Positions 56,411-64,000 of a stretch of 64,000 nucleotides of DNA are shown piece after piece. Source of the stretch: Candidatus Nomurabacteria bacterium RIFCSPLOWO2_01_FULL_41_18 (GTDB lineage: Bacteria > Patescibacteriota > Minisyncoccia > Phycocordibacterales > UBA9973); the NCBI GenBank assembly GCA_001785865.1, contig MFUZ01000009.1:15309-79308 (forward strand). The letters are read 5' to 3'. The position numbers were made by a program, and so were the translations under genes. Below the pieces are notes generated by a model. It was not told the origin of the DNA. It did no database searches and was given only the letters and a program-made list of their open reading frames with translations. Numbering within the stretch: position 1 is the first letter of the stretch; each line of letters opens with the position of its first letter.

Positions 56411-56716
56411 TGTTCGAATTATACAACTTGATACAATATAATTACGTCTTTCGTTCGCAATAATCTAAGTACACTTAATTATTGCTCACTCATTAGTAAT
56501 TATAGCAGAGAAATCACTAAAATTATATTTTTCTGCTGTATTTTTAGTCCAAATCCTGAAGTTATTCAGGGGTATTGAGATATTATGAGGGTATTGATTT
56601 TTTTCTACTTTTGTGGTTAGGTTAGGTAAATAAACCCTGGAGTAACGGAATGTCCGAGCTCCGCTGGAGCTCGTTCTTTTACAACAGGAAAACAAAGTTT
56701 CAGGAGTTTAACAACC

Positions 56717-57616
56717 ATGAAAATCACGTTACTAGGTCCTCTCGGGGCCAATTTCTCGGATTTGGCTCGTAAGGATTTCGGTAGAATATTCGATGATCAC
56801 TTCCTTCAGACTAACGATCGATCCAGTTTTTTGTTGGTCGATCGAAATGAGGATGTTTTGCCAAGCGTCATCAAAGATGGTGGGTTGGGGGTGGTGGCGA
56901 TGAATACGGAAGCTGAAGGAGTGTACGAGGCACCTTTCAGAAAAGTGGTGGCCCTACTCGACCATTATGACAATTCCGGACGGTGTCCAGTTGCACTTAT
57001 CGCTGCTCTTGAAAAGAGAGTTCGCTTCACTCTCATGGTAAAAAAGGGGACAGAATTTCAAGAGATCCAGGAAGTATGTGCGCATCCAAAATCTCTCGGG
57101 GCGTGCAGAAATAATATCCGGGCACATGGCTGGCGACCTATCGAATGCAACAGTAACGGCAAAGCCGCGGAATATGTTGCTCGTGATCCGAGATATACCA
57201 AGACTGCAGTTCTTGGTCCACGCGAAGCCGTGGAAACTTTCAAAGAGTTGAGAGTTGTACCCGGATATGAGGCTTTGGAAGACAATCCCGCGACGACAAT
57301 TTTCCATTTGTGGGGGCCGAGGTCGAGAAAGCGCATTGCAGGGCTTCGGGAAAACAACATGATTGTTTTAGCTTGCAGGCTTTTCCACAAACCCAACGCA
57401 AAGGGAAGTGTTATGAACAGTTTTGGCAAAAGGGGGATTAACATGCTTTATGACACCCAGGTTTTCGTCGGTGCGGCCAAATATGACCACATCTTTCTTT
57501 ACGAATGTCGGAAGGATCAAGTTATTGCGCAACGGGAAGCCTTACAGGAAGTTAGCAAAAATTCTCTTGTGGAGCGTTGCCTTATGCTGGGTCCTGTCCC
57601 TATTGTTAAAGCCTAA
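56717..57616 (+). CDS. pheA: Prephenate dehydratase-like protein with ACT domain
   Basis: LGPLGANFS, HPKSLGAC, SNGKAA, EDNPATTIF; divergent from canonical ENS/TRF motifs. Confidence 0.75.
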   Translation: MKITLLGPLGANFSDLARKDFGRIFDDHFLQTNDRSSFLLVDRNEDVLPSVIKDGGLGVVAMNTEAEGVYEAPFRKVVALLDHYDNSGRCPVALIAALEKRVRFTLMVKKGTEFQEIQEVCAHPKSLGACRNNIRAHGWRPIECNSNGKAAEYVARDPRYTKTAVLGPREAVETFKELRVVPGYEALEDNPATTIFHLWGPRSRKRIAGLRENNMIVLACRLFHKPNAKGSVMNSFGKRGINMLYDTQVFVGAAKYDHIFLYECRKDQVIAQREALQEVSKNSLVERCLMLGPVPIVKA

Positions 57617-57678
57617 CCGCTCGTCAACCGAGTAACAGGCGAAATTCCTAATCAATTAAAATAGATAGTACCAAGAGG

Positions 57679-57712
57679 GCCAGCACAACACGTTGCTGGC
57701 TTTTCCCTTTTT
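57679..57712 (+). terminator. pheA terminator
   Basis: GCCAGCA...TGCTGGC followed by T-rich tail. Confidence 0.6.
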
Positions 57713-57757: not shown

Positions 57758-57909
57758 TTGACAAAATTACACTATTTGATATCATACAAGTATGAGTCTT
57801 TTAATCAAATTTTCTGTTAACTATTATTACCGCCAAACGGGACGGTCTTCTTTTTGCTAATTAATTTAACTTTTAAAGCACAAAAGACCGCCCCGCAAGG
57901 CGGTTTTTT
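57758..57909 (+). promoter_or_regulatory. Promoter plus leader-peptide transcription attenuator of tyrS
   Basis: TTGACA-16-TATCAT; YYY leader ORF; mutually exclusive hairpins; terminator GACCGCC-CCGCAA-GGCGGTTTTTT. Confidence 0.8.
57792..57860 (+). CDS. Tyr leader peptide MSLLIKFSVNYYYRQTGRSSFC
   Basis: TAT TAT TAC at 57822-57830; ATG 6 nt after the -10 box. Confidence 0.78.
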   Translation: MSLLIKFSVNYYYRQTGRSSFC

Positions 57910-57968
57910 GTTTTTATGTTATGAAAATGAATTTTATAAATTTATCACAATATGCTAGAATCGGGATT

Positions 57969-59150
57969 ATGAAAGTTATTACCGATGAGAAGAAAATAGA
58001 CGAGCTTTTAACTCGAGGGGTGGAGAACGTCTACCCCAACAAGGAAGCTCTCAAGAAGGTTTTGATGTCCGGGCGAAAAATCAAACTCTATCTTGGGATT
58101 GACCCGACAGGTGGAATTTTACATCTTGGACACTTGGTTCAATTTCTCAAATTAAAAAAATTCCAAGACCTTGGTCATGAAGTTGTTATTCTTATTGGTG
58201 ATTTTACAGCGCAAATAGGAGATCCCACCGACAAACAAACAACCCGAAAACCGCTTACTCATAAGCAGGTCGTAGAGAATGCCAAGGGATACAAAAAGCA
58301 GATTAGTAAAATTTTGGATTTAAAGAAATTAAATATGAACTTTGTTCATAATGCCAAGTGGACTAACAAGCTTTCTCCAGAAGACATGTTGGAATTAGCC
58401 TCCAACTTTACAGTTTCCAACCTGCTTAGTCGAAGTATGTTTCAAGAAAGACTTAACACCGGTCGGGAAGTGCATGTTCATGAATTTCTATACCCAATTT
58501 TTCAAGCATATGATGCTGTGACTATGGATGTTGATCTGCAGATCGGGGGCAATGACCAAATGTTCAACATGCTAGCTGGTCGTGACTTGATGAGAAGAAA
58601 AAAACATAAAGAAATGTTTGTCCTGACTACTAAATTACTTGTTGACCCAACCGGCAAAAAAATGGGAAAAACTGAAGGGAATATGATTACCTTGAATGAT
58701 TCTGCCAACAACATTTTTGGTAAGATAATGAGCTGGCCTGACAGCATGATCGCTTCAGGTTTTGAAATATTTACTGGATGGGATTTGAACACTCTTCAAA
58801 TAGACAGCCCGCGTGATCAGAAAATGAAACTTGCCCACGAGGTCGTAAAAATTTGTCAGGGAGAACAAGCCGCAAGGGAAGCAGAAGAGAATTTTATTAA
58901 CACCTTCCAGAAAAAGGAGATTCCAGTAGAGATGGAAGAAATCAAGGGCCAAGAAGGTGAATTGGTGAGCGAAGTTTTGGTAAAAAATAAGATTTTATCT
59001 TCAAAAGGAGAGTGGCGCAGGTTATGCGAGGGGAATGGGGTGCATGACTTGGAGAAAAATGAAACAATTGCTGATCAAAATCTTAAAATTGACGGAAACC
59101 TGACACTCAAAATAGGGAAAAAGAGATTTATAAAAATCACAGCAAAATAA
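57969..59150 (+). CDS. tyrS: Tyrosyl-tRNA synthetase (alternative in-frame start at 57921)
   Basis: YLGIDPT, HLGH, QIGGNDQ, KMGKT, S4-like tail. Confidence 0.97.
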   Translation: MKVITDEKKIDELLTRGVENVYPNKEALKKVLMSGRKIKLYLGIDPTGGILHLGHLVQFLKLKKFQDLGHEVVILIGDFTAQIGDPTDKQTTRKPLTHKQVVENAKGYKKQISKILDLKKLNMNFVHNAKWTNKLSPEDMLELASNFTVSNLLSRSMFQERLNTGREVHVHEFLYPIFQAYDAVTMDVDLQIGGNDQMFNMLAGRDLMRRKKHKEMFVLTTKLLVDPTGKKMGKTEGNMITLNDSANNIFGKIMSWPDSMIASGFEIFTGWDLNTLQIDSPRDQKMKLAHEVVKICQGEQAAREAEENFINTFQKKEIPVEMEEIKGQEGELVSEVLVKNKILSSKGEWRRLCEGNGVHDLEKNETIADQNLKIDGNLTLKIGKKRFIKITAK

Positions 59151-62189: not shown

Positions 62190-62876
62190 ATGATAAAAAA
62201 AACAAACAAAATAAAAATAGCTCTGATAGGTTACGGCAAGATGGGGCAGGAGATCGATGCTCTTTGTCGCGACTCAGAAAATTTCGAAGTGGTCTCTATT
62301 AGTTATAGAAAAATTACCGATGCGATAGATATCAAGGGGATCAGTGAAGCTGATGTGGCGATAGACTTTACATCCAAAGATGTAGTTTTAAAAAACATCG
62401 AAGAAGTCGCAAAGCTTGGCAAGAATATTGTTATCGGGACAACTGGTTGGTATGGCGACACAGAGAAAGTAAAAAAAATAGTAGATAAATACAAAATTGG
62501 TTTGTTGTATAGCCCAAATTTTTCTGTTGGTGTAAACATTTATTTCAAAATAATTGATTTTACCGCGAAACTTTTTGCAAAATTGCCAGAATATGATGTT
62601 TACGGATTAGAAATTCACCATAAGGCGAAATTAGACAGTCCTTCTGGAACTGCTTTAAAAATTGCCAGTCTTATCAAAGGGCTTAATTTCAATTCTATAA
62701 GAGCTGGGAGTAATCCAGGCTTTCATGAAGTTGTGTTTGATAGTCCTGCTGACGGTATAACCCTTTCTCACCAAGCCTACAACAGAACAGGATTCGCCAA
62801 AGGTGCGCTTGTCGCAGCAGAATTTATTAAAAACAAGAAAGGCGTTCATTCTTTTGAAGACCTATTCAGCTCATAA
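62190..62876 (+). CDS. dapB: 4-hydroxy-tetrahydrodipicolinate reductase
   Basis: GYGKMG, GTTG, EIHHKAKLDSPSGTA. Confidence 0.95.
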   Translation: MIKKTNKIKIALIGYGKMGQEIDALCRDSENFEVVSISYRKITDAIDIKGISEADVAIDFTSKDVVLKNIEEVAKLGKNIVIGTTGWYGDTEKVKKIVDKYKIGLLYSPNFSVGVNIYFKIIDFTAKLFAKLPEYDVYGLEIHHKAKLDSPSGTALKIASLIKGLNFNSIRAGSNPGFHEVVFDSPADGITLSHQAYNRTGFAKGALVAAEFIKNKKGVHSFEDLFSS

Positions 62877-62888
62877 GACGATAAATAT

Positions 62889-63800
62889 ATGCGAAAAATA
62901 AATTTTTTTGGTTCCATCCCCGCCATAGTCACTCCATTCAAAAAGAATGGGGATCTCGACCTCGAAGCGCTCGACAGAATTGTGGAATATCAGCTCGCGG
63001 GAGGAGTGGATGGGATAGTGGTGGCTGGTTCGACTGGAGAAGCGGCGACATTGAATGAGGAAGAATACGCAGAGATTGTAAGAAGGGTAGTGAAAAAAGT
63101 TTCAGGGAAGGTCCCAGTGGTCGCCGGAGCGGGTTCGAATGACACTAAAAAAGCAATTCATTTTTCTAAGCTGGCGAAAGATGCCGGAGCAGACGCCCTC
63201 CTTCATGTCACCCCTTATTACAATAAGCCAACTCCAACCGGCCTCGTTCTCCACTACCAAGCAATTTCCAAAGCGGTGGATTTACCCATCATAATTTACA
63301 ACGTGCCTGGTAGAACAGGGTCCAATGTCTCGCCTCAAGTCATCGTGCGGATAGCCCGCGAAGTTCCGGCAGTCGTGGCAGTCAAAGAAGCTTCTGGTTC
63401 TCTTCCGCAGATGATGGAGATCATAAGTGAAGTGTCCCAAAACGGCTCAAAGGAACTTGAGAATTTCTCCGTATTGTCCGGAGATGATTCTCTCACTCTA
63501 CCCCTCATGGCTGTCGGCGGGCGAGGCTGTATCTCGGTAGTTGCGAACGAAGCCCCAAAGTTATTTTCCGACATGGTTCATCTGGCCCTAAGCGGAGATT
63601 GGAAGGGGGCGGCCAAGCTACACTACCTACTTCTTCCCCTCATGAATATTAATTTCATCGAATCGAACCCTATTCCCGTCAAGGCAGCAATGTCCATGAT
63701 GGGGCTCGTCGAAAATAGCTTGAGGTTACCGCTTACTAGCCTTGAAGAAAAAAACAGAGCCCAGGTTGAAAAAGCTTTGCAAGGAGCGGGACTTCTCTAA
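62889..63800 (+). CDS. dapA: 4-hydroxy-tetrahydrodipicolinate synthase
   Basis: GSTGE, TPYYNK, YNVPGRTG, VKEASG. Confidence 0.97.
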   Translation: MRKINFFGSIPAIVTPFKKNGDLDLEALDRIVEYQLAGGVDGIVVAGSTGEAATLNEEEYAEIVRRVVKKVSGKVPVVAGAGSNDTKKAIHFSKLAKDAGADALLHVTPYYNKPTPTGLVLHYQAISKAVDLPIIIYNVPGRTGSNVSPQVIVRIAREVPAVVAVKEASGSLPQMMEIISEVSQNGSKELENFSVLSGDDSLTLPLMAVGGRGCISVVANEAPKLFSDMVHLALSGDWKGAAKLHYLLLPLMNINFIESNPIPVKAAMSMMGLVENSLRLPLTSLEEKNRAQVEKALQGAGLL

Positions 63801-63813
63801 ATTTAAGAAAAAA

Positions 63814-64000
63814 ATGGCCACTATCAACAAAAATTACAACAAATTGCAAGGGTCATATTTGTTTTTGGAAATAGCCAAACGAACGAAAGATTTTTTGGAA
63901 AAAAATAAAGGAGTAGAGCTCATGCGGCTCGGCATCGGCGATACGACCGAGCCTCTATCAAAGGCGGTGATCAGTGGATTGTCGGCGGGGGTAAAGAAGC
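63814..64000 (+). CDS. dapL: LL-diaminopimelate aminotransferase (N-terminus, cut by window end)
   Basis: MATINKNYNKLQGSYLFLEIAKR...RLGIGDTTEPL. Confidence 0.88.
   Translation, partial: MATINKNYNKLQGSYLFLEIAKRTKDFLEKNKGVELMRLGIGDTTEPLSKAVISGLSAGVKK

Follow-up and report, generated by a model that had tools for sequence, protein, structure and literature searches.

The locus upstream of tyrS in the genome of this Candidatus Nomurabacteria organism, an ultra-small bacterium, raises the question of whether a gene for tyrosine--tRNA ligase is controlled by a short translated leader that senses tyrosine, as an initial annotation had proposed. The window is the whole stretch of DNA that was analysed, 64,000 nucleotides of contig MFUZ01000009.1, and all window features given below are on its forward (+) strand (G000 is the window genome, other G numbers are genomes of relatives, and L numbers are loci). 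tyrS occupies positions 57969 to 59150 (TIGR00234, 337 bits, cut-off of 114), with further in-frame ATGs at 57921 and 57927.

The unit in front of tyrS begins with a sigma-70-type promoter, P1 (57758 to 57785), in which TTGACA at 57758, a 16-nt spacer, and the extended -10 element TGaTATCAT (57777 to 57785) match the consensus at 11 of 12 positions. Six nucleotides past the -10 element, the ATG at 57792 opens a predicted leaderless ORF of 22 codons (57792 to 57860) encoding MSLLIKFSVNYYYRQTGRSSFC and ending in a stop codon at 57858 to 57860. The putative control codons, TAT TAT TAC (57822 to 57830), are Tyr11 to Tyr13; the window genome has one tRNA-Tyr, with anticodon GTA. The promoter, the ORF with YYY, and segments 1 to 4, which are numbered as in trpL and pheL, lie where the initial annotation had put them, with the stop codon ending segment 2. 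Segment 1 and the 1:2 hairpin, followed by a U-rich run that may be a pause site, span 57829 to 57846, and this 1:2 pairing can form as claimed but is weak (-6.5 kcal/mol). The 2:3 antiterminator is also present but had been drawn too short, because it includes CGGG (57838 to 57841) paired with CCCG (57892 to 57895); in full, 57838 to 57858 pairs with 57877 to 57895 (-20.7 kcal/mol), with covariation in the family described below. The 3:4 intrinsic terminator (57880 to 57911) is as described, with 13 pairs, 6 of them G-C, a free energy of -19.2 kcal/mol, and a U-tract at 57904 to 57909. Among the 3,286 ATG-started ORFs of 15 to 30 codons in the window genome, YYY occurs in 7 and YY in 72. The rarity of YYY, together with the preservation of the unit in 19 other sequences, places the unit beyond chance.

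No Rfam family matches the leader unit at its cut-off. There is no T-box match at the gathering score or at E values up to 10, and the amino acid leader families stay below their gathering cut-offs (Phe_leader, 21.1 of 55 bits; Thr_leader, 17.9 of 55 bits; Leu_leader, 16.4 of 50 bits).

Of 404 long genes in the window genome, 79 have a -10-like hexamer whose end lies exactly 6 nt upstream of the ATG, 44 of them in the extended TG form; other distances mostly account for fewer than 20 genes each. The predicted start of the leader at ATG 57792 would fit this leaderless habit. Shine-Dalgarno motifs are not enriched (20 of 404 genes, compared with 19.8 in shuffled sequence), so the absence of such a motif need not block translation of the read-through RNA. 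The 3' end of 16S rRNA was not found in this genome with short probes. ARAGORN reports two unusual anticodons in the same genome, tRNA-Ile(TAT) and tRNA-Ser(ACT).

Folding of the window leader as naked, full-length RNA gives 2:3 plus 1:4 (-32.2 kcal/mol), which is an antiterminated state, and the fold switches to the terminator when the 5' side is covered beyond ~57840. The initial annotation had suggested folding the alternative structures as a check, and 2:3 and 3:4 are indeed both strong, but the unoccupied RNA does not fold as 1:2 plus 3:4. Ribosome position was modeled as occlusion, with an assumed footprint of 9 nt beyond the A-site codon and equilibrium folding of the remainder. With the RNA occluded through the stop codon, P(terminator) is 1.0 in 13 of 13 folded family members, compared with ≤0.16 for naked RNA. 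Occlusion of the window leader leaves the full -20.7 kcal/mol helix for a stall at Tyr11 or Tyr12, -14.8 for Tyr13, and -0.2 at the stop codon, and in the folded members a stall at the first Tyr retains a helix of -13.7 to -25.7 kcal/mol before segment 4 is made. The equilibrium P(terminator) for the window leader is 0.43 with a stall at Tyr11, 0.39 at Tyr12, and 1.0 at Tyr13, and with a stall at the first Tyr it is 0.65 in G191 and 0.96 in G151. Since the terminator still competes at equilibrium under these stalls, the switch needs a co-transcriptional order of folding. The trpL leader undergoes super-attenuation when it is not translated. In contrast, the window unit has a weak 1:2 hairpin and its untranslated RNA is antiterminated, so that termination is predicted to need translation; judged from equilibrium folds only, it has no stable 1:2 anti-antiterminator of the kind that gives translation-free termination. 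What it does have are clustered cognate codons, an intrinsic terminator, a covarying and mutually exclusive antiterminator, and, in silico, the ribosome-position logic of an attenuator.

The unit belongs to a family of 20 distinct elements, nearly all from the window's genus, which score 48 to 102 bits against the sequence model; 13 of the 20 served to train it. Members came from a DNA search of 212 genus genomes, with additions from the sequence model, a pattern based on structure alone, a metagenome pattern, and a protein search for phhA. The tallies include the unpublished genomes G112 to G114, on which we base no conclusion. The first 13 were found by their DNA likeness to the window element and are kin rather than independent cases. 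The structure-only pattern, which is blind to Tyr codons, found 31 loci in the genome contigs, of which 13 have the promoter-ORF layout; all 13 of these have Tyr, and three were new. The remaining 18 loci showed no Tyr ORF. Record titles of pattern matches are mostly Candidatus Nomurabacteria, Paceibacterota, Minisyncoccia, or Patescibacteria. In an order-wide search of 149 other genomes, the sequence-only model R1 gave no full-length match, and its hits in 50 of these genomes are weak (≤25 bits) and mostly partial; ten were read and none has a Tyr leader layout. Because R1 is this weak outside the genus, Tyr leaders of other lineages, if there are any, would be beyond its reach. A search of viral contigs for the leader gave 0 matches.

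Within the family, all 20 members have Tyr in the slot that immediately precedes segment 1, and 17 of 20 have adjacent YY, with exchange of TAT and TAC; the three members that are short of one Tyr have YH, CY, and YHY. The -35 TTGAC and the TGnTA..T of P1 are preserved, and indels within the leader ORF keep the frame. In 16 members, the mean energy of a member's own segment 2:3 duplex is -17.6 kcal/mol, compared with -14.1 for swapped segments (0 of 20,000 permutations). The loops of hairpin 1 and of the terminator are reverse complements of each other, with 28 of 30 cells paired (tallies include C:G 5, T:A 4, and T:G 1, and A:T 4 and G:C 5), while shuffles average 21.7 and reach 28 in 9 of 20,000 cases, although the members are not independent, so that such counts overstate significance. 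This comparison uses the 10 of 20 members that have a fixed register and is anchored on motifs, since MAFFT and model alignments (A3 and A4) put segment 3 in two registers. In G013, a matched G-to-A and C-to-T change runs through all four segments. We see no reason for the terminator loop to covary with distant bases other than formation of 2:3. Based on the paired loop cells and the advantage of own over swapped duplexes, the covarying stems that the initial annotation had asked for are present. A duplicated terminator was also considered as the origin of the complementarity, and it is ruled out by the loops, which are identical in 0 of the 10 fixed-register members and are reverse-complementary instead.

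The genes behind these leaders point to tyrosine supply. The first gene downstream is phhA (phenylalanine hydroxylase) in 10 members, a second Tyr leader in 7, tyrS in 2, and a SLOG protein gene in 1, the last in the member with YH. The phhA assignment is confirmed by Pfam in 8 members and rests on evident likeness in L104 and L159, and phhA is often followed by a gene for pterin-4a-carbinolamine dehydratase or PTPS. None of the 6 metagenome hits precedes tyrS. Conversely, phhA is present in 10 of the 212 genus genomes, and the leader lies directly upstream in 8 of the 9 published ones, two of these leaders being previously unseen; the ninth phhA is different, operon-internal, and without a leader. 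In the phylum sample, phhA was found in 2 of 301 genomes. The second Tyr leader is followed by a tyrA-like gene in one case (L037, weak, with a PDH_N score of 21.3 bits and a cut-off of 26.5) and otherwise by genes for tRNA-Thr_ED proteins or unknown proteins. Five genus loci exceed the PDH_N cut-off, and in the four published ones there is no Tyr leader within 320 nt of the PDH_N gene; three of them are operon-internal. PhhA makes tyrosine from phenylalanine, and TyrA also makes tyrosine. Since the products of the phhA and tyrA-like targets make tyrosine, the leader very likely senses tyrosine.

The tandem layout, in which another Tyr-rich mini-gene, also provided with a hairpin, follows the first terminator, is seen in L037, L039, L040, L041, L042, L043, and L161. 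Stand-alone tRNA-Thr_ED (PF08915) proteins are encoded behind the tandem leaders at L040:447-860 and L043:840-1340; one of the two has a faint Tyr_Deacylase match (E of 0.0086), and one adjoins a racemase-like gene. They are candidates for tRNA-Tyr proofreading. The proteins of L041:1048-1320, L042:1902-2177, L039:984-1322, and L040:902-1264, also under tandem Tyr leaders, have no Pfam match, and those of L041 and L042 are similar to each other. A further protein in this position is encoded at L161:866-1390.

In relatives, tyrS lies head to head with a penicillin-binding-protein (PBP) gene, separated by a short spacer with a TGnTAnAAT promoter 6 to 7 nt upstream of tyrS, a layout seen in 28 of 29 loci of one set (read by eye) and 18 of 19 of another. 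In the window, ~1.5 kb separates the two genes and holds a Phe-rich leader, a prephenate dehydratase-like (pheA-like) gene (56717 to 57616; PF00800, 55.8 bits), the terminator that ends this gene and insulates P1 (57675 to 57704), and the Tyr unit. With the window protein as query, the pheA-like gene is found in 5 of 212 genus genomes. The relative G228 has the same PBP-pheA-tyrS layout without a Tyr leader. The second TGcTAGAAT (57953 to 57961), which the initial annotation had mentioned as a caveat, is present but has more weight than that, because it represents the ancestral promoter of tyrS, which relatives also have: P2 (57933 to 57961), 7 nt before ATG 57969. Conservation of a Tyr-codon ORF upstream of tyrS, which the initial annotation had offered as a check, is not found: the leader is absent from 48 of 49 relatives' tyrS loci read (29 of 29, 18 of 19, and G228). 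A few short ORFs with YY do occur near relatives' tyrS, but they overlap the tyrS promoter or run antisense to the PBP gene, and by eye we judged them not to be leaders.

The exception is G013, which has a YYYY leader directly before tyrS and no -10 element visible between the terminator and the tyrS start. The two leader-bearing tyrS genes (G000 and G013) fall in separate, fully supported TyrS clades, in a tree that retained 28 of the 47 rows offered after a motif filter dropped 19. G026, whose TyrS is in the clade of G000 (75% identical), has a plain tyrS and carries a leader at another locus. The first 30 bases of the G013 tyrS (L056:1547-1577) match the start of the G190 phhA at 28 positions, which suggests that the cassette was captured from a phhA gene. 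The G013 tyrS encodes a longer TyrS with an insertion. For the window, we infer that the pheA insertion carried the Tyr unit in as a movable cassette, and the independent linkage in G013 supports the status of tyrS as a real target.

Taken together, these observations make it highly probable that the element is a genuine Tyr attenuator, and the unit very likely belongs with the classical attenuators that work by ribosome stalling, here tuned to tyrosine and carried on a movable cassette. We infer the transcription and translation of the leader, the stalling of the ribosome, and the direction of control as follows. Transcription from P1 would begin at ATG 57792 or beside it, so that the transcript is leaderless. 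With plentiful tyrosine, the ribosome would reach the stop codon at 57858 to 57860 and cover segment 2, so that 3:4 forms and the transcript ends near 57909. With scarce Tyr-tRNA, a ribosome stalled at Tyr11 or Tyr12 would cover segment 1 only, 2:3 would form before segment 4 exists, and the polymerase would read into tyrS. P2 would supply a basal floor, and the switch would act as a booster. Because tyrS keeps P2, the attenuator can only add to basal expression, unless it is an orphan. The proposal that it regulates tyrS is therefore upheld in part: conservation, covariation, and gene context favor a Tyr attenuator, but it is not a conserved control of tyrS, and most members precede other genes. 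We consider it probable that Tyr stalling adds read-through transcription of tyrS above the P2 level, although, given the absence of the leader from 48 of 49 relatives' tyrS loci and the intact P2, the added effect may be small or nil.

The main competing account of the window unit is that the cassette, as a genuine Tyr attenuator, entered together with the pheA insertion and ahead of a different gene (phhA, or tyrA behind a second leader), which has since been deleted, so that in practice P2 alone drives tyrS. The intact P2 is in keeping with this, as are the 18 of 20 family members that precede genes other than tyrS, the lack of PDH_N, CM_2, DAHP_synth_1, and Biopterin_H matches in the window genome, the PBP-pheA-tyrS layout of G228, which lacks the Tyr leader, and a weak resemblance, in AT-rich DNA, between the post-terminator spacer and the spacer before the second leader of G034. 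However, the unit shows no decay, with its 11/12 promoter, three Tyr codons, and both helices intact, read-through meets tyrS 60 nt on with no barrier, and G013 provides an independent tyrS linkage without P2; we regard the orphan account as unlikely. We give still less weight to the idea that the leader responds to something other than Tyr-tRNA charging, either slow decoding of NAY codons (Asn-Tyr-Tyr and its His variants), which are the codons of queuosine-containing tRNAs, or arrest by the nascent peptide IKFSxNYY. In its favor, the residue before YY is usually Asn, 2 of 20 members have His in place of one Tyr, a PTPS/QueD-family gene follows phhA in L044, and IKFS is preserved in approximately half of the members. 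Yet the targets are Tyr-supply genes (phhA in 10, tyrS in 2, and a tyrA-like gene in 1), a single transition suffices to turn Tyr into His or Cys, the phhA-linked members differ freely in their N-terminal peptide, and PTPS also serves the pterin supply of PhhA, so that this idea is improbable.

Least credible of all is a pair of adjacent terminator-like hairpins that insulate tyrS and happen to overlie a short ORF, with no regulation. Tandem near-identical terminators can by themselves yield complementarity resembling 1:2, 2:3, and 3:4, as in several of the non-CPR pattern matches such as L080 and L098, but the fixed-register loops described above are reverse complements and never identical, the family conserves the promoter, start codon, frame, and Tyr slot, and pheA is already closed by the terminator at 57675 to 57704. 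This passive account is already largely refuted. Returning to the Tyr attenuator, a broader proposal, which we put forward tentatively, is that a portable, leaderless Tyr-sensing cassette has been shuffled between genes in Nomurabacteria-type Patescibacteria and defines a Tyr regulon, and that tyrS captured it on two or more occasions, in G013 as its only promoter and in the window as a booster beside the old one. If so, bacteria thought to be poor in regulation have a tyrosine regulon, transcription and translation are coupled from a leaderless start, and the stand-alone tRNA-Thr_ED/DTD-fold proteins and the 92-aa family would be tyrosine-stress or tRNA-Tyr proofreading factors.

Leader-peptide attenuation is documented for several amino acids, among them Trp, Phe, His, Thr, and Leu. 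In the openly accessible literature, outside subscription journals and supplements, we found no paper on a Tyr-only leader attenuator, an attenuator of this kind for tyrS or phhA, or attenuation in Patescibacteria/CPR, which agrees with the statement of the initial annotation that it knew of no Tyr-codon attenuator for tyrS in CPR. Comparative attenuator surveys in subscription journals may list Tyr leaders. A literature search for leaderless RNA or coupling in Patescibacteria yielded nothing usable. The closest described arrangements are the E. coli pheM-pheST attenuator (Springer et al. 1985, cited in PMC11802643) and the predicted attenuators of Streptomyces trpS and leuS (PMC1262725), which share with the window unit a cognate-codon leader peptide, an alternative terminator and antiterminator, and a synthetase gene; the window unit differs in its Tyr codons, its occurrence in Patescibacteria, its predicted leaderless leader, and the second promoter past the terminator. 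As in E. coli trpL and pheL (section 7 of PMC11802643), it has 1:2, 2:3, and 3:4 pairings, control codons 11 and 12 before segment 1, and a stop codon over segment 2. The Corynebacterium glutamicum aroR-aroF leader (Neshat et al. 2014, in PMC11802643) likewise has a Tyr-containing leader ahead of an aromatic pathway gene, but it reads Phe-Tyr-Phe and Tyr availability is reported there to have no effect, whereas in the window family only Tyr codons serve as control codons and genes of Tyr supply lie downstream. In Firmicutes, tyrosine and most other synthetase genes are under T-boxes (PMC1262725); both systems, the present one by prediction, relieve termination ahead of tyrS when charged tRNA-Tyr is short, but the window unit senses through a translated ORF and has no T-box match. 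For tyrA operons, the relevant part of PMC1173090 gives predicted upstream attenuators and describes no leader peptides.

The element is real and well conserved. It is very likely a tyrosine variant of a textbook mechanism, on a cassette that changes genes and has twice come to lie before tyrS. If real as a switch, it fills the gap of a Tyr-only attenuator with a compact element of 150 bases, and it shows how a regulatory RNA can be transferred to an essential gene, a process of which one genus displays two stages. It also suggests ribosome-based sensing of individual amino acids in these uncultured minimal cells and marks uncharacterized genes as related to tyrosine.

The window holds a sister Phe/Tyr leader (56585 to 56680) before the pheA-like gene, encoding MRVLIFFYFCG and a stop codon (56585 to 56620) and followed by a terminator (56655 to 56673); related leaders occur in 5 other genus genomes. 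Those leaders precede pheA (G228), chorismate-mutase-like ORFs (G151 and G062), and other genes, and a second copy of this type is found at G000:C6:158640-158714. At G000:C6:81311-84549, where gene names were assigned from sequence, there are trpS, a trpR-like gene, a TGTACTAGTACA palindrome over a -10 element, a Trp-Trp leader with a terminator, a lone trpE-like gene, and a racemase-like gene; no other trp genes were seen beside the trpE-like gene at this locus. Based on the Trp leader before the trpE-like gene and the Phe leader before the pheA-like gene, in addition to the Tyr unit, leader attenuation looks like this genome's general way of sensing aromatic amino acids, although, as noted, it gave no PDH_N, CM_2, DAHP_synth_1, or Biopterin_H match. 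In G110 (L033, G110:C1), the pheA-like gene is preceded by a Phe-rich leader of another kind, NNYFFFFSF, and a strong terminator. In L129 (G301), an Ile-rich leader-like stretch and a terminator precede, by eye, RidA-like and threonine-dehydratase-like genes and are a possible Ile attenuator. At the end of the window (62190 to 64000), this CPR genome carries the lysine pathway genes dapB-dapA-(dapL-like).
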